Assembly (NCBI GenBank): GCA_965198115.1
Contig: OZ240241.1
Span: 3,552,001 to 3,616,000, forward strand
Origin: Candidatus Latescibacterota bacterium
GTDB lineage: Bacteria > Latescibacterota > UBA2968
Length of the DNA stretch: 64,000 bases
Direction of reading: 5' to 3'
The translations under genes were made by a program, and so were the position numbers. Under the pieces are notes generated by a model that ran no database searches, was not told where the DNA came from, and worked only from the letters and a program-made list of their open reading frames with translations. This document shows, in pieces, positions 22,475-37,998 of the stretch. The stretch's first letter is position 1. Every line of letters begins with the position of its first letter.

Positions 22475-23380
22475 ATGATTCCACTGATCAGCAGTCTGTG
22501 CTACGGCCCCCTCGACGTCTGTCACCTGCCCCGCTTTTGGTGGAAAGTCTTGCTTCGAGCCAAAGGCCTTCTGGATGAGGAATACCCCGACCTGAGCGGG
22601 GGTCTCGACACGAACGTGCTCAAGGCGCTCGAGTTGGATATCGACACGACCCTCGGATATCTGCGATCGGAAACACCCTCCTATCTGACCTTCGAATCGT
22701 GGGTGCTCGAGCAAAAAGGGGGATCGATCGACCGTGTGGCTGCCGACGCCTGGAACGACTCGGTACGCAATCGCGTCCATACACGCCCCGAGAAAATCGA
22801 GGAAACCTACAACGACATCGGCTGGACCAAGGACGAAGTTTCGGTCGATTCTGCCGTCATCCTGAACAGCGTGCAGGACTGGCAGCTCTTCCACAAACGT
22901 GACCTCGACGCCGACTATGGCGCGTTGGGCAACCAGGTCATTCCCCTGATCGCTACGATCGACTATGGCCCGCTCGAAGTCTGCCAGCTCCCTCGAACGT
23001 GGTACAAGATCACGATGCGGACCAAGGGCCTGCTCCACGACGACTATCCGGACATGCTGCCCAACGGTGGGCTCGACAGGTGGGCACTCGACGCCCTCGG
23101 GATCGACCAGGACCGAGTGGTCGCCCACGTTCGCGAGCATCTTCCCGACTACGTTCAGTTCGAGCGGTTCATCCTGGCCGAGAGCGGAGGTCAGATCGAC
23201 CGTGCCGCCGCCGACGCCTGGAACAAGAGAGTGCGGGAACGGATTCACAACGACGCGAAGCAGACCGACATCAAAGGCACGCTAGAGGACTACGATGTCG
23301 GCCACGTGACATCCGCCGTCGTCCTCAACCATATCGAGGACTGGCACTTTGCGCACCAGAGTCTGACCGCCAACACCTGA
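22475..23380 (+). CDS. Internally duplicated DUF5069-like protein
   Basis: Two approx. 150-aa repeats IPLI...GPL.VC.LPR.W.K...GLL...YPD...GGLD...LN...DW..H. Confidence 0.7.
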   Translation: MIPLISSLCYGPLDVCHLPRFWWKVLLRAKGLLDEEYPDLSGGLDTNVLKALELDIDTTLGYLRSETPSYLTFESWVLEQKGGSIDRVAADAWNDSVRNRVHTRPEKIEETYNDIGWTKDEVSVDSAVILNSVQDWQLFHKRDLDADYGALGNQVIPLIATIDYGPLEVCQLPRTWYKITMRTKGLLHDDYPDMLPNGGLDRWALDALGIDQDRVVAHVREHLPDYVQFERFILAESGGQIDRAAADAWNKRVRERIHNDAKQTDIKGTLEDYDVGHVTSAVVLNHIEDWHFAHQSLTANT

Positions 23381-23455: not shown

Positions 23456-24613
23456 CTACAGATCCGTGAAGACCGCCAGTCCCCCCGTGTAGCTGTGTAC
23501 GTAGTTCTTTCCTCCGACGGGTGCGAGTTCGGCGTTCCCGAAAAAACCCACGAGGGGGAAGTCACCCAGTTCGGCGGCGATCAGTCCCACGTCGTGATCG
23601 GGTTGTCCGAACAAACCGTATCCCCTTCCCAAACAGTTGAAATAGAGACCAAACCGAACCGGGTCTTCTCCGAGCTCGCGTGCCACCGCCTGAACGGTTT
23701 GAACGAGATCGTCGTGTGCGGCAGCCGACGTCCTGCGGTTGAATTGAACGGTCTGGCCCGTCACCACGTGCTCGCCGACCGCGATCGATCCGTCCTCGGG
23801 GTTCAAGCCGATCAGGTTTCGTATCAGAAAGTCACCGCGCCCCCGGGCCGTCGCCAGTTCGTCCATCGCCAGGCCTACGAAGATGGATGGGCCGACGTTC
23901 TCCTTTTCCTCGGGCGTCAGTGTGTCGAGGGCTTCCTTCAGCGCATCGATCGCGGGCGAGAAGGCGATTTCGTGAATCACGTTGCCCTCCCCCTTCGTGA
24001 TCGTGTAGGCCTGGCCGAATGGCTGGCAGCCCTGCGCGACGCCCGTCAGGATCTTGACCTCCCCTCGCAGCAGGACGCCCGCCACGCCTTCTTGAACAAC
24101 CTCTCGACCGCACCACTGATACGATCGTGGATCCATAGGAGACCCGGACGCCGCCGCCCCGACGATCGGAAACGGTAGAGACCGTCCGAGTGCCTCGATC
24201 AGCGGTCCCGGATTGTGAGCGGATACGTCCGGAAACAGACAAAGCAGTCCGGACTCCGGCGCGTAGGGCAGCAACGCCTCGGCGATCTCCGCTGAGGCCC
24301 CCGCTCCCGTCGCCAGAAAGGGCACCGGCTGGATGACGTCACCCGAAACAGCAAGGACGGCGACCGCATCCCGTTGCTCGACCTCGCTCTTCTCGTTGAG
24401 CACGCCCATTCCACTGCAGCCCACGACCGCATCCGTCGACCCGAGGGCCGTCGCTTCCTCCACCAGGGTCTGGCCGTGCGAGGCGTGCGCACCCGACGCG
24501 AACAGTAGAACCAGGGACACATCCCCGAGCCCTTCCATGGCAGAGGTCAGGGCCTCCCGAACCGCCGCCCCGGCATCGTTCTCCTGACTCAACCCGGAAC
24601 CGACCTGGATCAT
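23456..24613 (-). CDS. FIST signal-transduction domain protein
   Basis: VVGCSGMG, VAQGCQPFG, FLIRNLIG, YFNCLGRG, GFFGNAEL, HSYT. Confidence 0.9.
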   Translation of the reverse strand: MIQVGSGLSQENDAGAAVREALTSAMEGLGDVSLVLLFASGAHASHGQTLVEEATALGSTDAVVGCSGMGVLNEKSEVEQRDAVAVLAVSGDVIQPVPFLATGAGASAEIAEALLPYAPESGLLCLFPDVSAHNPGPLIEALGRSLPFPIVGAAASGSPMDPRSYQWCGREVVQEGVAGVLLRGEVKILTGVAQGCQPFGQAYTITKGEGNVIHEIAFSPAIDALKEALDTLTPEEKENVGPSIFVGLAMDELATARGRGDFLIRNLIGLNPEDGSIAVGEHVVTGQTVQFNRRTSAAAHDDLVQTVQAVARELGEDPVRFGLYFNCLGRGYGLFGQPDHDVGLIAAELGDFPLVGFFGNAELAPVGGKNYVHSYTGGLAVFTDL

Positions 24614-25602
24614 CTCTTCTCCTTCTCCGCGTCCCCCGACAACCAGCGAAGTGCCGCGTCGACCGCTGCCACCTGGAGCCGCACCTGCGTGCGAACCGGT
24701 GTCCTCGTGTTGTTGTTCTGCACTTCGGTCACCAGATGATACAGCGTCCTTTCGATCTCGTCCCAGGCCTTGTTCAGATACGCCGCCTGCCCCGATCGTC
24801 TCGGATAGCCCGACCCCGGATGGTCTCTCGGGTGGGCGCCCTCTTCGCGCCATCGTTCGTGAATCGACTCAGCCATCGCGACGTAGCGCTCCTGCAAGTC
24901 CGGGGCGAAGGACGAAAGACCCGTTGGAACGTTGATGTGACAGTTGTTCTTGGAGCCGACGTATTCGGTCTGATGCAGGTCGAGCCACGACTCGTAGGCG
25001 CGCTGTTCCTGCATCTCGAAAAACGATCGAAAGAAAGTCGACCGATGATCGCGATTCGGCTCGACGTAGGTGCGGTCGTCGATCTGTTCGTAGGCGATTC
25101 CGAGCAACCGGGGCGGCACCGTCTCCCGGTCGTCCCACGACGGCACGCGAGGAAACCGCTCACCCGGAGCATCCCCCCGCTCGCCGAACATCCACAGAAA
25201 AAACGTCTCGTTCGGAATGCGCGTGCCATCCCAGAACCGAACGGGCGCCCGTTCACTGCCTCCGGGATTGGCATCAGGCACGAAAGTCAGCGTAAAGCGG
25301 CTCCACACATCCTGCCGCCACGTTGCCATCGCGGTGTCCGAGCCGGAGAGCCACTTCAACATCAGCCAGCTTGCAGCCGTGCCCGCGGGCTCGTGTGCGT
25401 GCGGCCGCGACACGAACACGCCGATCGGCCCATCGCCCACGGTCAGGGCGTAGACCGTACGCCCGCCGTACTGGGTGAATCGATCGAGGCGCACGTTTTC
25501 GGCAGTCTCGTATCGTTCAACGTGACGATCTGCTTCGTCGGGCGTCGCGATCAGATCGTCTTCATCAGGAATGATTCGATCGAGATCGGTAAGAGGCTGC
25601 AT
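24610..25602 (-). CDS. M14 family zinc carboxypeptidase-like protein
   Basis: PHAHEPAG (HxxE), ANPGG, EPNRD, LDLHQ; ATGA overlap with the FIST gene. Confidence 0.8.
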   Translation of the reverse strand: MQPLTDLDRIIPDEDDLIATPDEADRHVERYETAENVRLDRFTQYGGRTVYALTVGDGPIGVFVSRPHAHEPAGTAASWLMLKWLSGSDTAMATWRQDVWSRFTLTFVPDANPGGSERAPVRFWDGTRIPNETFFLWMFGERGDAPGERFPRVPSWDDRETVPPRLLGIAYEQIDDRTYVEPNRDHRSTFFRSFFEMQEQRAYESWLDLHQTEYVGSKNNCHINVPTGLSSFAPDLQERYVAMAESIHERWREEGAHPRDHPGSGYPRRSGQAAYLNKAWDEIERTLYHLVTEVQNNNTRTPVRTQVRLQVAAVDAALRWLSGDAEKEKR

Positions 25603-25759
25603 CTTCAGAGAATATAAGCTGCGATCACACCCCGTCTCATCTGAATCGCCGGATCCCGCAAAATTTGTCCTTTTCTTGTCAGCCCAATCCAATTCGTTTA
25701 TATTAGTCTTCCTGCCGTGAACACAGGGTGTAGCATTAGGTCCCTTAAGGCTCAGGTTT

Positions 25760-26224
25760 ATGGATTTCAAAGAAACCCTGCGTGACGAGCTCGTCCGCCG
25801 TGTCGACCTCTCCTTCTACGTGGAAGTGCAGAACGGCACCAGTGTGGCCGACCTCGTCGAGAAGATGCAGGCGAGCCATCGCAAGTGCGCGCTCGTCCTG
25901 GAAGGTGACCGGCTGAAGGGCATCTTCACCGCCCACGACATCCGCGATCTCGCCCCCAAATCCGATTCCCTCTGGCAACCCATCGGCACCGTGATGACGC
26001 ACAACCCGGAAACGATCAGTGGGGACGCGTCGCTCCTCGAAGCCATTCAAATCCTCAACAACAAGCCCTATCGGTATCTTCCCGTCCTGAACAAGGACGG
26101 TCACGTCATCGGCACGCTGACGCACTATGCGGTCCTGAAGTATATCTCCGACCACTTCCCGGAGGAAATCTACAATCTTCCGCCGGAACCCGATCGCATC
26201 GCCCAGTCGCGCGATGGCGCCTGA
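25760..26224 (+). CDS. Stand-alone CBS-pair protein
   Basis: LKGIFTAHDI, VMTHNPETI, YRYLPVLNKDGHVIG. Confidence 0.9.
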   Translation: MDFKETLRDELVRRVDLSFYVEVQNGTSVADLVEKMQASHRKCALVLEGDRLKGIFTAHDIRDLAPKSDSLWQPIGTVMTHNPETISGDASLLEAIQILNNKPYRYLPVLNKDGHVIGTLTHYAVLKYISDHFPEEIYNLPPEPDRIAQSRDGA

Positions 26225-26262
26225 CCGCAACCCACTTCCCCGGTAGCAGGAGGTCTTGAGCA

Positions 26263-28125
26263 ATGGCCGATACTCCGGCTGAATCACCTGCCGACGAAGG
26301 TGTCGAAATCGTAGAATCCATCGCTGTTCGTTTTGCCGGCGATTCGGGTGACGGTAGTCAGCTGATTGGCAACGAGTTCGCCAACACCTCGGCCATCCTC
26401 GGGAACGACATCTCCACGCTGCCTGACTATCCGGCGGAGATCCGAGCCCCTGCCGGCACCTTGCCCGGCGTGAGCGCCTACCAGGTCCATCTGTCCAGCG
26501 AAGAAATCTACACGCCCGGGGACGAGCCTCAGGTGCTCGTCGCAATGAACCCGGCCGCACTCAAAGCGAACATCGAGGACCTGCCACACGGCGGCGTGGT
26601 CATCGCCAACACCGACAACTTCTCGCGCAACAACCTTCGCAAAGCCGGCTACGAGCAGGACCCGTTGGAGGATGGTTCCCTCTCCGCCTATCGTGTGGCG
26701 AAAGTGCCCCTCACGACGTTGCACAAGGAAGCCGTGAAAGATGTAGAAGGCCTGTCGAACCGCCAGATCGACATGATGAAGAACATGTTCGGCCTGGGTC
26801 TGGCCTACTGGATCTTCGATCGCCCGCTCGAGCCGACAATTCGCATGCTCGAGAAGAAATTCGCGAACCTGCCCAACGTCGTCGAAGGCAACGTCAAAAC
26901 GATGAAGGCGGGCTATAATTTCGGCGAAACGACCGAGCAGTTCCAGTATCGGTATCGCGTCTCGAAAGCACCGGTCGAGCCCGGCACCTACCGGGCGGTC
27001 AACGGTGCCCAGGCTACCGCACTCGGACTCGTCACGGCCGCCCGCAAAGCAGGGCTGACGCTCTTCTACGGGAGCTACCCAATTACTCCCGCAAGCTCCC
27101 TCCTGGAAGAGTTGGCTTCTCTCAAAAACTTCGACGTTCGGACCTTCCAGGCCGAAGACGAAATTGCGGCGATGGGATCGACCATCGGAGCCGCCTTTGG
27201 CGGGGCGCTCTCCGCGACCGGCACGAGCGGGCCCGGTATCGCCCTCAAGAGCGAGGCCATCAACCTCGCCCTCGTCCTCGAACTCCCCATGATCATCTGC
27301 AACTTCCAGCGCGGCGGGCCGAGCACGGGTCTTCCAACCAAAGCGGAACAGAGCGATCTGCTTCAGTGCATGTTCGGGAGAAACGGCGAGAGTCCCGTCA
27401 TTGTGGTCGCAGCCAAAACACCGGCCGACTGTTTCGAAACGGCCATCGAAGCGGCTCGTCTCGCGCTCGAAACGATGTCACCGGTCTTCTTCATGTCCGA
27501 CGGTTACCTCGTCTTCAGCTCCGAACCCTGGAGAATTCCCGATCCGGACTCGATACCCGAGATCCCGGTCGAGCCCTGGACGGACGCTGAGAACTTCCAG
27601 CCCTACAGCCGTGACCCCGAAACCCTCGCACGACCCTGGGCGCTGCCAGGCACCACCGGCCTCGAGCACCGCGTCGGCGGCCTTGCAAAGCAGGACGTGA
27701 CGGGCAACGTCTCCTACGACCCCGACGATCATCAGCATATGGTCGACACGCTCGCGGCCAAGGTCGCGCGCGTGGCCGAGCGCATCCCCGAACAAGAGGT
27801 GGACGGTCCTGAATGGGGTGACCTGCTGGTCCTCGGATGGGGAAGCACCTACGGCGCGATTCGATCGGCCGTCCGGCGGGCTCAACAGAAGGGACAAAAG
27901 GTCGCCTTCGCCCACCTGCGGTATCTCAACCCTTTCCCGCGGAATCTGGGCGACATCCTGCTGAAATACGATCGAGTGCTCGTACCCGAGCTGAACGGGG
28001 GGCAGTTGTCCTTCCTCCTCAACGCAAAGTATCCATTGAAGGTGGAGTCCTATCCGAAGGTGCAGGGACAGCCTTTCAGGATTTCCGAAATCACCGAAAA
28101 GATCGACGAGCTGTTGGGCACGTAG
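26263..28125 (+). CDS. korA: 2-oxoacid:ferredoxin oxidoreductase alpha(gamma) subunit
   Basis: RFAGDSGDG, YPAEIRAPAGT, GSYPITPAS, QAEDEIAA, QRGGPSTGLPTK. Confidence 0.93.
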   Translation: MADTPAESPADEGVEIVESIAVRFAGDSGDGSQLIGNEFANTSAILGNDISTLPDYPAEIRAPAGTLPGVSAYQVHLSSEEIYTPGDEPQVLVAMNPAALKANIEDLPHGGVVIANTDNFSRNNLRKAGYEQDPLEDGSLSAYRVAKVPLTTLHKEAVKDVEGLSNRQIDMMKNMFGLGLAYWIFDRPLEPTIRMLEKKFANLPNVVEGNVKTMKAGYNFGETTEQFQYRYRVSKAPVEPGTYRAVNGAQATALGLVTAARKAGLTLFYGSYPITPASSLLEELASLKNFDVRTFQAEDEIAAMGSTIGAAFGGALSATGTSGPGIALKSEAINLALVLELPMIICNFQRGGPSTGLPTKAEQSDLLQCMFGRNGESPVIVVAAKTPADCFETAIEAARLALETMSPVFFMSDGYLVFSSEPWRIPDPDSIPEIPVEPWTDAENFQPYSRDPETLARPWALPGTTGLEHRVGGLAKQDVTGNVSYDPDDHQHMVDTLAAKVARVAERIPEQEVDGPEWGDLLVLGWGSTYGAIRSAVRRAQQKGQKVAFAHLRYLNPFPRNLGDILLKYDRVLVPELNGGQLSFLLNAKYPLKVESYPKVQGQPFRISEITEKIDELLGT

Positions 28126-28151
28126 ACATCAGCGTTCTGGAGAAATCCAAC

Positions 28152-29690
28152 ATGGCGGAAGCAACAGCAACACCTCAGCTCACCCGCAAGGACTTCGTCT
28201 CCGACCAGGAAGTTCGCTGGTGCCCGGGATGCGGCGACTATGCCATACTCGCCCAGATGCAGCGCATCATGCCCGATCTGGGAATCCCCAAAGAGAAGAT
28301 CGTGTTCGTATCCGGTATCGGCTGCTCCAGTCGTTTTCCTTACTACATGGACACCTACGGGATCCACTCGATTCACGGGCGGGCACCGACTCTCGCGACC
28401 GGTCTCAAGGTGGCCAATCCCGACCTCCACGTTTGGGTGATCACGGGCGACGGTGACGGGCTGTCGATCGGCGGGAATCACATGCTTCACGTTCTGCGCC
28501 GTAACGTGGACGTCAACATCATCCTGTTCAACAACCGGATCTACGGACTCACGAAAGGTCAGTACTCTCCCACGTCATTGCCCGGTCACAAGACGAAGTC
28601 CTCACCCATGGGATCTATCGAACAGTCGTTCAACCCCATTTCCGTGGCCATCGGGGCAGAGGCCACGTTCGTCGCGCGCACGGCCGACCGAAATACCAAA
28701 CATCTGGCAGAAATTTTGGCGAAGGCCGCCGCCCACAAAGGAACGTCGTTCGTCGAGGTTTACCAGAACTGCAACATCTTCAACGACGGCGCGTGGCTCC
28801 ACATCACCGAGTCCGAGGTAAGAGACGACAACACCCTGATCCTCGAAGATGGGGAGCCCATGATCTTCGGAAAGGACCAGGATCGTGGGATCCGTCTCAA
28901 CGGTCTCTATCCCGAAGTCGTCGAGCTGGGCAACGGCGTGAGCGAAAACGAACTCCTCGTTCACGACGACAAGGCAGAAGGCCCCGAGCTCGCTTACCTG
29001 CTGAGCCGGCTCGGACCGCCGGATTTCCCGGTTCCTCTCGGGGTCTACCGATCGATCGAACGCCCGACCTACGAGGGCCAATTGGTCGAGCAGGGCGCTC
29101 AAGCCGTGGAAGAGAAGGGCGCCGGTGACCTGGCCAAGCTCTACCACGCGAGCGATACCTGGATCGTTCCTGAGGATTCCGGCTGGGTCCCTCCGGAGCA
29201 GCGCCGGGCGCTATCCACAGAGGTTTCCCCATCGACACCCGACTACACGCCCGACATCGATCACGAGGAAGAACCAAAAAGCGAGCTTCAAGACCTGATG
29301 GAGAACCGCATCGCCACGCTCGATCTGCCAGAGCCAGCCTGCGTCAAAGCCGAGACGACGCTCGCCGAAGGCGTTCAGCTGATGAAGGACCAGAACTTGG
29401 GGTGCCTGCTAGTCACCGACGATGATGGTAAGATCGAGGGGATTTTCGCGCAGGGTGACATCTTCTCCCAGGTTGCCCGCCGCGATATGGACATGAACAC
29501 CACTACGGTGGGATCCCTGATGACCCCGGATCCGACCACCCTCAGCCGATCGGCCCCGATCGGACACGTCTTGCACCTGATGGCGCTTCACGGATTCCGT
29601 CACATCCCGATCGTCAACCGCGAGGGCAAACCCGTCGCCCTGGCGTCGTTCAAATCCGTACTCCAGTTCCTGGGCGGCATCCTGCAGTAG
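28152..29690 (+). CDS. korB: 2-oxoacid:ferredoxin oxidoreductase beta subunit fused to a C-terminal CBS pair
   Basis: WCPGCGD, SGIGCSSR, HGRA, GDGD..NN.IYGLTKGQ; after an acidic linker, CBS motifs GCLLVTDDDGKIEGIF, LMTPDP, GFRHIPIV. Confidence 0.92.
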   Translation: MAEATATPQLTRKDFVSDQEVRWCPGCGDYAILAQMQRIMPDLGIPKEKIVFVSGIGCSSRFPYYMDTYGIHSIHGRAPTLATGLKVANPDLHVWVITGDGDGLSIGGNHMLHVLRRNVDVNIILFNNRIYGLTKGQYSPTSLPGHKTKSSPMGSIEQSFNPISVAIGAEATFVARTADRNTKHLAEILAKAAAHKGTSFVEVYQNCNIFNDGAWLHITESEVRDDNTLILEDGEPMIFGKDQDRGIRLNGLYPEVVELGNGVSENELLVHDDKAEGPELAYLLSRLGPPDFPVPLGVYRSIERPTYEGQLVEQGAQAVEEKGAGDLAKLYHASDTWIVPEDSGWVPPEQRRALSTEVSPSTPDYTPDIDHEEEPKSELQDLMENRIATLDLPEPACVKAETTLAEGVQLMKDQNLGCLLVTDDDGKIEGIFAQGDIFSQVARRDMDMNTTTVGSLMTPDPTTLSRSAPIGHVLHLMALHGFRHIPIVNREGKPVALASFKSVLQFLGGILQ

Positions 29691-29765
29691 CCCAGCACAG
29701 AGATCGACTGAAACGCCCTCCGTCTTCACGCGGTGGGCGTTTCTCGTTCCACCAGGAGAGCCAGA

Positions 29766-33302: not shown

Positions 33303-33400
33303 TGGCGGAAGCGCATCGGAATCGAACCGATCCTGTGTGGTTCTAGCACACAACAACGGGTTTGAAGCCCGCGGGGGACACCAGTTCCCCTCCCGCTTCC
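33303..33400 (-). tRNA. selC: tRNA-Sec (anticodon UCA)
   Basis: GGAAGCG...TGGT D-loop, GCGGG-CTTCAAA-CCCGT anticodon arm, long variable arm, ATCGG-TTCGATT-CCGAT T-arm, CGCTTCC-GCCA end; 98 nt. Confidence 0.93.
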
Positions 33401-33403
33401 GTG

Positions 33404-34427
33404 TCAGTCGGCTTCCATCAGTGCATCTTCGCGCGCCATCTGCTCCTTCTGCCAGCCATAGTCGACGTCGCCCTCGTAAAAGGCTTCGGGTGTTTCGATC
33501 GCCCAGAGCTGCTTTCTGATCAGCCAGTTCTTGGGATCGAGTCGAAACGCCTGCTTCAACTCGGCGATCGCTGCCTCCCGTTTCCCCTGGTCCAGGAGAA
33601 CGATCGCAAGCTGGAATCGCGCGTCAGCCTCCCGTTCTTCACCCGACAGAGGCTGGATCTTCGCGACCTCCCCTTCCTTCCAGGCGGCCGGCACCTCGCC
33701 CGTCTCCGCCCACGCCGTCAGCTCCGACCGGAACGTACCATCTTCGATGTTGACGGATCCGACGGAACGAACGAGTCGCCCGTCCTCGTCGACAATGATT
33801 GCGACGGGAACGAACTTCACGTTAAAGGCCTTTCCAATCTGATTCCGTTGATCCAACAGGGCACGATACGTTCCCCCCGCCTGTGTCACCCACGGGAGAG
33901 CAACGTCGGCGCCCTGCGCGTCCTGAGCGATGACCACGATCTCGACACGATCGCCATACGTTTGATAGAATCGCTGCCACCCGGGCAGCTGGCCACGACA
34001 TCCTCACCAGGACGCCCACATGAAGAAGACCGTTCGTTTGCCTTCGAAGTCGAACGACCGAACCGGCTCGCCCGTCGAGAGATCGGGCAACGTGAACTGA
34101 GGGGGACGGTCTCCTGCACCCAGCCCTGAGCTCGGCTTGTCCATTCCTACCGCATCCCCGTCTCCACGCCAGCTCACCTGGAGGGGCGGCCCCTACCTGA
34201 CCCAGGTCGACGTAGTCCACGCCATCCACTTCAATCAGATCTCCGTCAGCCAGTGGAATACACAAATCGCCCCGGCAGACCGAAAGCTGGTCCCCGCCTG
34301 GAAGGGGCTTCAGCTCCGAGCCCGTTGCCAAACAGAAGGCGTTCAGGTCAGCGTAGGTCTTTCCATCGCGCGTCGTTGCACGAATCGGTGTCTCAACACC
34401 GTCGATGGTTACAGCATCGTAGTCCAT
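33404..34427 (-). CDS. UGC-type peroxiredoxin/TlpA-like selenoprotein with C-terminal TPR; Sec at 34004-34006; +1 frameshift near 34182-34193
   Basis: GDRPPQFTLPD...FFMWASW-TGA-GCRGQLPGWQ is in frame with ORF 33404..33937; N-terminal CRGDLCIPL; GGAGG RBS before ATG 34427 (alternative start 34499 would add a signal-like peptide). Confidence 0.85.
33973..33989 (-). promoter_or_regulatory. Candidate bacterial SECIS element
   Basis: GCUGCC-CGGGU-GGCAGC; the loop starts 20 nt after the UGA and has G at loop position 2. Confidence 0.7.
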
Positions 34428-34479: not shown

Positions 34480-36375
34480 CTATAGTAGGACACGCACATC
34501 GCCCTTTCGTTCCGTCACGCCCTCCGAATCGAAGAAGTTCAGAAGGGGAACAGCGTATTTTCGCGAGGTTCCGACCAGGTCCCTGAAATCCGACACCCCA
34601 ATTTCGCCACGATCGGTCGCGAACTGAACAAGCTTCTTACGAATCTCGTCGATCGTCTCCGAAGCGAACCACATCGACTCTTCGAGCCTCACCAGATCGC
34701 CCAGCGAGGCCATCGCATCCAATATCTGGTCCAGGTCGCCGTCACCTGCCGCCGACGCCAGCTCTACGAGATCGGGCGGCGACGCACCGGCCGCTCTTAG
34801 CGTCGTCAAAACCGACAGCCGCGTCGACTCCTGTTCAGGGCCGAACGTGACCACGTGGCCTGCTGCTCGCAGAACGGGGCCGTCCTTGACCACGTGGCCC
34901 GACGAAACGACCGCGTCGACCGCCCGTTGAACGAACGTCGGATCCGCATCGCGTCCAACAGCGGATCTGAGCGCACCTTGCGGCATCCCGGACTGGAGCG
35001 GATGCGAAACGTGATGCGCCGTCACGAGACGCTCGATGTCGGCCACCAGCCCATTCCAGTGCTCGGCAGCGGCGTAGCCGTCGTCCAGGCCGGGCACCAG
35101 CGTCGCCTCTTCGGCCTGCACCAGGTCAGCCAGATGCTGCTTGACGCGGTCGACCGACGTGCCCAGCTCCATCGCCAGCCCCGATGGTGTCGAAACGCTC
35201 CGTCGCGCCCGATCGAGGTAATGGAGCACAACCCGCGTCGGGTCATCCGTTTCGAGCTCGTGGAGTGCCGCGGTGACCTCGGAGCGCAGCCGACGATGTT
35301 TGACAGGTCTGGCATCCAGAACCACGCCACCACCCAGCGTCACGACGGGACTGAAACGCCGGATCACGAATCGGTCTCCCCGGGCGACCACCCCGGGGGC
35401 TTCCAGACGGAGCTGAACGAGCCCCGATTGGCCGGGCGATATCTCGTCCGTTTCCAGAGTCACGACCCTGGCCAGGACGTCTCGCGGCCCCAGGTGCAGG
35501 TGGACGCGGGCCCTATTCTTCACCGGCGACGCCTCCTCGAGCACCTCGAGACGCGCATCGATCATGTAGGTCGTTTCGAAGTGGTCGGGCTGGACCAGCA
35601 GATCGCCACGCTCGACATCCGCGACCTCCACCCCCGCAAGGTTCACGGCGACCCGTGCCCCGGCCACGGCCAACTCGACATCCTGCCCGTGCGTCTGAAG
35701 CCCCCGCACGCGCACCTGCTGTCCACCCGGCAAAAGATCGACCGAATCTCCATCAGTAACCTTACCGGAAACGACCGTACCAGTCACAATGGTACCAAAA
35801 CCACGGACCGAAAAGGCGCGATCGACCGGCAATCGAAACACGCCGCTGTCCGGACGCTCTCCGACATTCGCGATCTCCCGTTCCACGAGGTCACGCAGCT
35901 CGTCGATCCCCTCTCCCGTCTCGCTCGAAACGGGCACGATCGGCGCGTCGGCCAGGAACGTGCCTTCCACGAGATCGGGTAGCTCCTCCGTCACGAGTTC
36001 CACCCACTCCTCTTCGACCAGATCCGTCTTGGTCAGGGCGATGATGCCGCGTTCTACGCCCAGCAGATTCAGAATCCCGAGGTGCTCGTGCGTTTGAGGC
36101 ATCGGACCGTCGTCGGCCGCCACGACGAAGAGTGCCAGGTCGACACTACAGACGCCGGTCACCATATTTTTCACGAAGCGTTCGTGTCCGGGAACGTCGA
36201 TAAAGGTGACGTTGTCCTTCCAGTAGGCGAACCCGATATCGATCGTTACGCCCCGCGCCTTCTCCTCGGGCAACGTATCCGTATCGATTCCGGTCAACGC
36301 ACGGACGAGCGCCGTCTTGCCGTGATCGATATGACCCGCCGTTCCGATGATCACGTGGCGCACGGGTCGCTCCAT
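34480..36375 (-). CDS. selB: Selenocysteine-specific elongation factor
   Basis: GTAGHIDHGKT, DVPGHERFVKNM, DRAFSVRGFGT, C-terminal winged helix TSRKYAVPLLNFFD. Confidence 0.97.
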   Translation of the reverse strand: MERPVRHVIIGTAGHIDHGKTALVRALTGIDTDTLPEEKARGVTIDIGFAYWKDNVTFIDVPGHERFVKNMVTGVCSVDLALFVVAADDGPMPQTHEHLGILNLLGVERGIIALTKTDLVEEEWVELVTEELPDLVEGTFLADAPIVPVSSETGEGIDELRDLVEREIANVGERPDSGVFRLPVDRAFSVRGFGTIVTGTVVSGKVTDGDSVDLLPGGQQVRVRGLQTHGQDVELAVAGARVAVNLAGVEVADVERGDLLVQPDHFETTYMIDARLEVLEEASPVKNRARVHLHLGPRDVLARVVTLETDEISPGQSGLVQLRLEAPGVVARGDRFVIRRFSPVVTLGGGVVLDARPVKHRRLRSEVTAALHELETDDPTRVVLHYLDRARRSVSTPSGLAMELGTSVDRVKQHLADLVQAEEATLVPGLDDGYAAAEHWNGLVADIERLVTAHHVSHPLQSGMPQGALRSAVGRDADPTFVQRAVDAVVSSGHVVKDGPVLRAAGHVVTFGPEQESTRLSVLTTLRAAGASPPDLVELASAAGDGDLDQILDAMASLGDLVRLEESMWFASETIDEIRKKLVQFATDRGEIGVSDFRDLVGTSRKYAVPLLNFFDSEGVTERKGDVRVLL

Positions 36376-37769
36376 TCGACATCGAGCACCCTCTGGATGG
36401 CGTCGGCGACTGCCTGCACATCGTCATCCGGCACGGTCCTCAGATCCAGATGAAGGGCATCGTCTCGAACATAGCCGACGACCGGTGGATTTCCCAGTCT
36501 CAGACGTCGCGCAAGCTCGCCCGCCGAGCAGCTCGACCGAACGATCACAGCCGCACTCGGGATCGTTTCGACAGGAAGCGCGCCGCTCCCTACCTGCGCG
36601 GCCGAATCCACGATGTCGACATCGCGGGTCCCGATCGCCGTCGCCAGACGTCCGGCCCGAGCCCGCACGGTCTCTACCGATTCGGTCAGCATACGCGTCA
36701 CCGGGTGACGTTCGGGCAGACGGCTCGCGTTCAGGAACAGCTTGAGGGTTTCCTCCAAAAGGAGATAGGTGATCTTGTCGCATCGGAGGGCTCGCATCAA
36801 AGGATTTCGTCGGATTCGCTCCAATGCGTCCCGCTTGCCGACCAGAATCCCGCATTGTGGGCCCCCAAGCATCTTGTCGCCACTGAACGTCACGACATCG
36901 GCTCCGGCTTCCACACTCTCGGAAGCGATCGGTTCGTAGGGCAACCCGAATGCTCGAACGTCGTGCAATACCCCGCCCCCGAGGTCGTGCAACACAGGGA
37001 CGTCGTGACGCGCACCGATCTCGACCAGATCGGACAGGGAAACCTCGGCCGTAAACCCTTCCACGCGAAAGTTGCTCGGGTGAACCGAAAGCAGGAGCGA
37101 TGTGGCGTCGGTGATCGCGGCCTCGTAGTCTCCGGCGTGCGTCCGGTTCGTCGTACCCACCTCGACCATTCTCGCGCCACTGCGTTCCATAATGGCAGGA
37201 ATGCGGAAAGACCCGCCGATCTCCACCAGCTGACCCCGCGACACGATCGCTTCGCCGCCCTCCGCCAGCGTGTTCAGCGCGATCAGGACGGCGGCCGCAT
37301 TGTTGTTCACGAGCGCGGCCGACTCGGCGTTCGTCAGCCGACACAGCAGCGACTCGACGTGGTCGATGCGGGACCCACGATCGCCCGATACCAGATCGTA
37401 CTCCAGATTGGAGTAACCCGAGGCGATCTCAGCAACTTTCCGCGCAACGTCTTCGGCAATCGGAGCACGGCCGAGATTGGTATGGAGAACCACCCCCGAT
37501 GCGTTGATGACACGTCGGAGACTCGGAGACATCAGTCGCTCGACACGTCGCTCGATGTCCTCGACGATCCGTGCTTCCAGGTTGCCCTCCGGGACGAACA
37601 CGCCTTCCCGAAGCCGATTGCGCAGGTCGGCTGCCGCATCGCGGGCCAGGTCGACCAAAATGGATCGGTCACAGTGAACGGATAGCGCGCGCACGGCCGG
37701 AAGATCGAGCAATCGATCTACACCGGGAATCTGCGAAAGAAGAGCCTGCTTGGGATTGGATGTGCTCAC
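36351..37769 (-). CDS. selA: L-seryl-tRNA(Sec) selenium transferase
   Basis: VINASGVVLHTNLGRAP, VNNNAAAV, EIGGSFRIP, EVGTTNRT, FSGDKMLGGPQ; start approximate. Confidence 0.96.
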   Translation of the reverse strand: MSTSNPKQALLSQIPGVDRLLDLPAVRALSVHCDRSILVDLARDAAADLRNRLREGVFVPEGNLEARIVEDIERRVERLMSPSLRRVINASGVVLHTNLGRAPIAEDVARKVAEIASGYSNLEYDLVSGDRGSRIDHVESLLCRLTNAESAALVNNNAAAVLIALNTLAEGGEAIVSRGQLVEIGGSFRIPAIMERSGARMVEVGTTNRTHAGDYEAAITDATSLLLSVHPSNFRVEGFTAEVSLSDLVEIGARHDVPVLHDLGGGVLHDVRAFGLPYEPIASESVEAGADVVTFSGDKMLGGPQCGILVGKRDALERIRRNPLMRALRCDKITYLLLEETLKLFLNASRLPERHPVTRMLTESVETVRARAGRLATAIGTRDVDIVDSAAQVGSGALPVETIPSAAVIVRSSCSAGELARRLRLGNPPVVGYVRDDALHLDLRTVPDDDVQAVADAIQRVLDVEWSDPCAT

Positions 37770-37998
37770 GTCGAAGACCGAATGAGGATGCGGTAACTTC
37801 GTTTCGATGCTTGTCGACAAGGTCCATTGAGGACCGCAACGCCGACAAGCCCGTAAGTTACTATAAATCAACCGGATTCGCGGGAATCGGACCATTCGTC
37901 TCCCCACCGGCATCCGGGTCGTCCAATATCCTAATTTATCCTTCGGCGCAAAAAGGCGCAATCGCCTTGTCTCCCGGCAAAGCTCGCAAGTGCTTTAT

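Follow-up and report, generated by a model that had tools for sequence, protein, structure and literature searches.

What is a pair of CBS modules doing in the operon of a 2-oxoacid:ferredoxin oxidoreductase, and why is one of them fused to a catalytic subunit of the enzyme? The question is raised by a locus of a Candidatus Latescibacterota bacterium (assembly GCA_965198115.1) that lies in a 64,000-nt stretch of contig OZ240241.1 (positions 3,552,001 to 3,616,000 of the forward strand), referred to as the window in the rest of the text and numbered from its first nucleotide. Three co-oriented genes on the + strand, separated by gaps of 38 nt and then 26 nt, code for a free CBS-pair (Bateman) protein of 154 amino acids (aa) (cbsA, 25760..26224), for an alpha subunit of the fused gamma-alpha type of 620 aa (korA, 26263..28125) and for a beta subunit of 512 aa that ends in a CBS pair of its own (korB-CBS, 28152-29690). 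The best reading of our analysis is that the free and the fused module form a regulatory pair of four CBS domains, since the two are inherited together, chains exist in which both types stand in tandem, and each module keeps one nucleotide site.

The order of the three genes, proposed in an original prediction made from the DNA letters alone, was borne out by the coordinates and by the Pfam domains. Pfam recognises two CBS domains in CbsA and no other domain (2 x PF00571), and its AlphaFold2 model has a confident core (mean predicted local distance difference test score, pLDDT, of 88) that matches CBS-pair folds. We place the start of korB-CBS at the ATG at 28152, as the in-frame start at 27837 would overlap korA. 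The encoded protein divides into a catalytic core of the long-beta type (approximately residues 1-339, 28152..29168), a linker (approximately residues 340-379, 29169..29288) and a CbsB-type CBS pair (approximately residues 380-512, 29289..29690) containing GIFAQGD at 430-436 and GFRHIP at 481-486. The linker is as acidic and Pro-rich as originally described; its 40 residues include 11 Asp/Glu and 7 Pro but lack Cys.

Judged by its catalytic motifs, KorAB is an intact two-subunit 2-oxoacid:ferredoxin oxidoreductase. KorA contains the Pfam domains POR, POR_N and PFOR_II, passes TIGR03710 (637 bits for a cut-off of 483) and carries a YPITP motif (Y272-P276) that is invariant across a 75-row alignment. 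KorB contains a TPP_enzyme_C domain (residues 56-203) ahead of its two CBS domains, together with the words WCPGCG, SGIGCSSR and GDGD; C24, C27, C58, C207 and GDGD (G99-D102) are invariant across a 75-row alignment, and the score against TIGR02177 is 258 vs a cut-off of 262. The substrate is somewhat likelier to be 2-oxoglutarate than pyruvate, as far as residues and family models can tell. KorB R61 corresponds in alignment to R63 of the 2-oxoglutarate enzyme of Magnetococcus (6N2N) and to K49 of the Sulfolobus enzyme, a position that has been tied to specificity; the pyruvate preference of the Sulfolobus K49R mutant conflicts with taking this position as a 2-oxoglutarate marker (PMC5020499; papers given by PMC number are cited throughout from the accessible parts of their text). 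As regards specificity, the best NCBIfam matches lie below equivalog cut-offs. The genome also encodes a 2-oxoglutarate dehydrogenase E1, three genes resembling pyruvate dehydrogenase E1-alpha, a gene resembling pyruvate:ferredoxin oxidoreductase (PFOR) and a gene with a diadenylate-cyclase domain. The PFOR-like gene (G000:C1:5059876-5063529, locus L077) codes for 682 aa that correspond to the first half of the PFOR model, and a beta-like match lies just downstream.

An artefact of sequencing or assembly, or a lost stop codon, is practically excluded as an explanation of the fusion. Of 32 matches to KorB residues 300-512, 29 (query included) carry both TPP_enzyme_C and CBS, and thus 28 protein clusters besides the query combine the two domains. 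A scan of 168 genomes of the phylum gave 45 with an unbroken fused frame, the window's genome counted, and all 45 are among the 53 that belong to its order; the other eight of the order comprise four with split genes, two cut at contig ends, one with a weak partial match and one with no match. In addition, a separately assembled contig, possibly from the same sample as the window, covers 28765-29750 with zero differences. The AlphaFold2 model of KorB-CBS, built from 28 close sequences, reached a mean pLDDT of 51 with a linker below 50, and we used only its CBS part.

While the fused architecture had been predicted correctly, the wider four-gene operon to which it belongs, the zinc ribbon of free CbsB and the C-terminal tail of CbsA had been overlooked. 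Both CBS modules are present in 33 of 40 loci chosen by KorB: 8 are fused and 25 have the order cbsA-korA-korB-stop-cbsB, whereas 6 of the remainder have neither CBS gene and 1 is cut by a contig edge upstream. All 26 free CbsB proteins examined begin with a four-Cys zinc ribbon, which is conserved across phyla (in the 60-row CbsB alignment, 38 sequences match Pfam DZR). In the fused proteins the linker replaces the stop codon, the intergenic gap and this ribbon; it contains no Cys in 27 of 28 cases and a single one in the last, and some linkers keep words such as IIPGI and QEDP that resemble by eye the NIPG and QEDLP of the ribbon region. From these sequences we infer that the split operon with a zinc ribbon is ancestral and the fusion derived, because fission would require that four cysteines and a start be rebuilt. 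Stop-codon readthrough, by which split forms might also yield a fused product, was rejected because TAA, TAG and TGA are used alike and 11 of 26 split loci are out of frame, even though the first 12 of these 26 had been chosen for being in frame.

The fusion of CbsB to KorB is best read as having arisen at least twice. In a KorA+KorB tree (28 rows hand-picked from the loci, 958 columns, LG+G4), split lineages separate two Chloroflexota fusions from those of Latescibacterota; a single origin was found in 0 of 200 bootstrap trees, and the approximately unbiased test rejected one fusion clade (p = 8e-74), under a simpler model that can over-reject. The Chloroflexota linkers differ, and their fused modules keep GIFTEGD or GILTERD. 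Against this stands an earlier quick tree of KorB only (90 rows), which was compatible with one origin. Among 251 genomes from the phylum of the Anaerolineaceae record, nine have this type of KorB, two of them fused, four split with both CBS genes and three with none. In one Chloroflexota genome (L220:7018-9169), a second, distant korA/korB-like pair directly follows the fused korB-CBS operon.

The association of the CBS genes with korAB extends over several phyla. A scan of species genomes with the CbsA motif returned at least 120 stretches, and we examined 80 that had flanks; some of these genomes overlap the phylum genome set. A tailed CBS pair is encoded in 67 of these 80 listed matches, and the other 13 arose by chance. 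korA adjoins 61 of the 67, three end at a contig edge, and the other three (L112, L136 and L153) contain no kor gene and place cbsA next to a second CBS gene, the two CBS genes remaining adjacent where korAB sits elsewhere. The titles of the listed records name Planctomycetota, Latescibacterota, Acidobacteriota, Omnitrophota, Armatimonadota, Krumholzibacteriota and Chloroflexota, and Botrimarina hoheduenensis Pla111 (L105) is a named, described strain that carries the operon. By a hand tally of the window's phylum, whose genomes are kin and hence not independent counts, cbsA occurs in 115 of the 128 that have this type of KorB vs 2 of the 40 that lack it, and both exceptions are incomplete assemblies in which korA lies next to cbsA. 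Neither cbsA nor korA has another close copy in the window's genome, for which named homologues and the genomes nearest to it likewise indicate Latescibacterota.

Each of the window's two modules keeps one G-h-h-x-x-x-D ribose site together with its partner R-x-x-P stretch. Across phyla the first site of both families reads GI[FL][TS]ERD and the Arg in the partner strand is invariant. The residues G54, T57 and R105, invariant in 75 CbsA sequences, and D101, R148 and H149, invariant in the 60-row CbsB alignment, match the G-h-h-S/T-x-x-D/N and h-y-y-h-P motifs by which adenosyl sites are defined (PMC6429129, PMC11172384). The adenosyl motif is complete at the first site of the window's CbsA (GIFTAHD, G54-D60, 25919..25939, for a family consensus of GIFTERD), and a nucleotide site probably survives in this protein. 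The first site of the fused module keeps its Asp and has Ala in place of Thr (GIFAQGD vs GIF[TS]ERD in free CbsB); to judge from these residues, the module may bind weakly, bind another ligand or act as a dock.

How, then, do the two modules relate to each other? CbsA and the fused module share 26% identity and belong to homologous families. Their genes also remain adjacent in the rearranged order korA-korB-cbsB-cbsA (locus L253). A profile search recovered 34 tandem four-CBS proteins, of which 9 have a clear A-type first half and a B-type second half; another, P0153, consists of a zinc ribbon-CbsB followed by a tailed CbsA, and the rest are mostly ambiguous as to type. The A-then-B tandems (P0142, P0145, P0146, P0159, P0160, P0175, P0181, P0207 and P0213) are 273-286 aa long and have no tail. 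Taken together, these sequences make it likely that the two different modules pair into one four-CBS disc. The original claim of a sensor composed of the free and the fused module thus gains from the conservation of the fusion, from the co-inheritance of the modules with each other and with korAB, and from the single-chain tandems; cast as a four-site adenylate sensor it fares less well, as each module keeps the Asp at its first site alone and the fused site is altered. The distances of CbsA, CbsB and KorA correlate with one another at 0.91-0.93 in every pairing, values that shared descent accounts for. Sequence and fold searches of the PDB with the CBS modules returned generic CBS pairs only, and the nearest ESM Atlas clusters, mostly from Planctomycetota, are automatically named CBS families of a generic kind.

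The most distinctive part of CbsA is its C-terminus, FPEEIYNLPP-x10-GA-stop in the window (26156..26224), for which the family consensus is [FY]P-x-x-[VI]YNLPP-x10-GA. All 31 CbsA proteins chosen through KorB end in GA, and 28 of them have the full motif; of the 47 in the alignment chosen by profile, 39 have GA at the end and 6 have GG, and the 12-residue tail spacing is fixed in 39 of the 42 scored. Model confidence falls over residues 141-154, with pLDDT values of about 50 and 38 for the last two blocks, and the tail is predicted to be unstructured when alone. A conserved, free C-terminus of fixed length suggests that it inserts into a pocket of its partner.

We therefore propose a mechanism, which on these sequences we regard as an even call, in which CbsB anchors the assembly, CbsA joins it to form a four-CBS disc, an adenosine nucleotide sets the state of the disc, and the CbsA tail switches KorAB. 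The anchor would be tethered by the linker in the window's protein and possibly by the zinc ribbon in free forms, and CbsA would be the effector, recruited through disc formation. A nucleotide at the single intact site of each module would alter the disc and thereby insert the tail into a KorAB pocket or withdraw it, for which AMP-bound AcuB, which blocks the active site of AcuC, provides a precedent (PMC13121692). As a guess at direction, the ATP-loaded disc would close the ferredoxin route and AMP or ADP would open it, so that 2-oxoglutarate flux would be divided between KorAB and the NAD-linked dehydrogenase of the genome. More tentatively, and with more doubt than confidence, we suggest that CbsA and CbsB could be a dedicated heterodimeric nucleotide sensor of several phyla whose Gly-Ala-ended tail would act as a switchable plug of a 2-oxoacid:ferredoxin oxidoreductase and so place a ferredoxin-linked step of the tricarboxylic acid cycle under direct allosteric control, a two-chain counterpart of the AMPK-gamma disc that would have been fused at least twice.

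Several observations weigh against this proposal. The ribose Asp is kept at only two of the four sites in this genome, being absent at both second sites; more generally, fused modules have Ala for the site Thr in 25 of 28 cases and Gly for the Arg in 27 of 28, and they keep the second-site Asp in 2 of 28 vs 38 of 60 rows of the CbsB alignment. Among close relatives of CbsA, the Arg has become His in 50 of 63. Given these losses, sensing of the phosphates may be weakened or altered in the window's order. No KorA or KorB residue tracked the presence of CBS genes in 92 CBS-positive and 34 CBS-negative loci, a comparison of weak power with 10 independent pairs; the column search gave seven weak candidates, none significant in the independent pairs, and a docking site was therefore not located. 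Finally, when 80 metagenome loci were chosen by KorB alone as a control, 31 had enough flank on both sides to be informative, and 22 of these have KorAB of this type with no CBS gene; the other nine have CBS genes (seven both, one cbsA alone and one cbsB alone). Since KorAB often stands without them, the CBS pair is accessory to the enzyme, as expected of a regulator.

The altered sites bear directly on an alternative that we consider rather unlikely, namely that the CBS pair does regulate KorAB but responds to a signal other than energy charge, such as c-di-AMP, diadenosine tetraphosphate (Ap4A), S-adenosylmethionine or methylthioadenosine, or that the fused module is a scaffold and CbsA alone senses. 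The loss of Thr and Arg from the fused GIFAQGD site would fit such a ligand, and so would the motif's reported role in setting the permitted substituent at the ribose O5' (PMC11172384), the diadenylate-cyclase domain gene noted above, and the c-di-AMP- and Ap4A-bound CBS pairs found among the fold neighbours. Yet most phyla keep GIF[TS]ERD, a motif with the Arg that in MgtE belongs to the type binding the phosphates of ATP (PMC6429129). Models of the c-di-AMP receptors CbpA and CbpB, moreover, gave scores of 18.9 and 20.2 bits vs cut-offs of 150 and 125, which indicates membership of neither family.

The tail could instead serve to protect or park the enzyme under oxygen or redox stress, by plugging the active site or shielding an Fe-S cluster while the CbsB ribbon acts as redox sensor; the C-terminal protective extension of Desulfovibrio PFOR is the model for this explanation, which we judge improbable. 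The ribbon of free CbsB, present in all 26 proteins examined and conserved across phyla, and the fixed length of the tail are in its favor, as are hosts that include planctomycetes and acidobacteria, many of which are aerobes. Nevertheless, no fused form retains the ribbon, yet CbsA persists with its tail; the tail contains no Cys, and conservation in both modules is highest at the residues of the nucleotide sites. Two-subunit enzymes of similar subunit size are, in addition, described as oxygen-tolerant (PMC9855186, PMC2773412). We find it more improbable still that the CBS genes are co-transcribed with korAB but serve another target or assembly, the fusion being a tolerated loss of the stop codon. 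The three listed loci with CBS pairs away from korAB and the lack of a covarying Kor residue point in that direction. Those three genomes nonetheless still encode this KorAB elsewhere, neighbors of korAB-free CBS pairs share no metabolic enzyme (19 of 69 listed open reading frames scanned), and a 98%-complete genome (G090) lacks both korB and cbsA when 20 congeners have both. That the fusion became fixed in two phyla, whose linkers differ and whose fused forms have given up the ribbon, also speaks against a tolerated accident.

Around the operon, whose GC content resembles that of the remainder of the window, a sigma-70-like promoter candidate (25676..25704, + strand; TTGTCA-17-TATATT, 10/12 by consensus match only) lies between a divergent gene and cbsA, which begins 55 nt further on; by the same consensus matching, two promoter-type sites were found vs 0.7 expected. 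A terminator-like hairpin at 29719-29737 scored no better than chance level. The divergent gene (24610-25770, - strand) has no Pfam or NCBIfam match and probably starts near 25602; its HxxE and DLH words are reminiscent of zinc carboxypeptidases. A 301-aa protein with two similar halves and no Pfam match is encoded at 22475-23380 (+ strand). Further downstream, 33401-34144 (- strand) codes for a probable selenoprotein, whose frame crosses one TGA in WASW-U-GC and continues to a TPR-like end, and its neighbors are tRNA-Sec (33303-33400), a selB-like gene (34480-36375) and a selA-like gene (36351-37961); the protein is probably thioredoxin- or peroxiredoxin-like. Elsewhere in the genome, 20 tRNA genes are packed tightly on one strand (G000:C1:2870558-2872531).

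2-Oxoacid:ferredoxin oxidoreductases set the flow of carbon and of low-potential electrons and are used in engineered CO2 fixation. If the proposed regulation is correct, it would add a control point to the tricarboxylic acid cycle of the abundant, little-studied Planctomycetota, Latescibacterota, Acidobacteriota and Chloroflexota, would help explain why KorAB is kept beside an NAD-linked dehydrogenase, and could offer a portable switch for carboxylating enzymes. The original statement that no characterised example was known agrees with our searches: we found no description of CBS modules with 2-oxoacid:ferredoxin oxidoreductases in the literature, subscription papers and supplements excluded, and among 12 of 34 entries of the literature on allosteric control, no title names a regulatory subunit for these enzymes. 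Both parts of the system are of known kinds, and it is their combination, the hetero-pair, the tail and the change from ribbon to linker that appear to be undescribed.

On the enzyme side, the window's KorAB resembles the Magnetococcus marinus 2-oxoglutarate:ferredoxin oxidoreductase (6N2N) and the Sulfolobus tokodaii 2-oxoacid:ferredoxin oxidoreductase (5B46/5B48) in having a fused gamma-alpha subunit with YPITP and a beta subunit with motifs for thiamine pyrophosphate and [4Fe-4S] binding. The matched PDB beta chains, in contrast, are only 273-305 aa long and align only to KorB residues 10-214. The 2-oxoglutarate enzyme of Chlorobaculum tepidum is similar in subunit size (68 and 38 kDa, PMC9855186), a match of size alone, and Mycobacterium tuberculosis KorAB is a 2-oxoglutarate-specific, aerotolerant enzyme (PMC2773412). 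The accessible texts on two-subunit enzymes mention no CBS partner, whereas the window's operon has two CBS modules, one of them fused.

On the regulator side, the closest parallel is AcuB of Bacillus and Geobacillus, an operon-encoded stand-alone Bateman protein whose structures (9S52 etc.) are fold neighbors of CbsA. AcuB is a CBS-ACT energy-charge sensor that inhibits the deacetylase AcuC by binding to it; it forms homodimers, contains an ACT domain and has four sites occupied (PMC13121692). The system described here differs in that it has two different modules, no ACT domain by Pfam, a short tail, a ribbon in free CbsB and korAB as neighbors, and in that the proposed target is an oxidoreductase. 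In CBS-pyrophosphatase, IMPDH, KdsD/GutQ and AMPK-gamma, CBS pairs similarly are add-on regulatory blocks that some species have and others lack (PMC11172384), although the window's modules match CBS-fused enzyme families far below their cut-offs. The disc of CBS-pyrophosphatase forms between identical subunits, whereas we propose a hetero-disc in which a fused module pairs with a free one. CbpA and CbpB (DarB) are also small stand-alone CBS-pair proteins, and they control enzymes in trans, as CbsA would. AMPK-gamma likewise forms a four-CBS disc in which some sites have no Asp.

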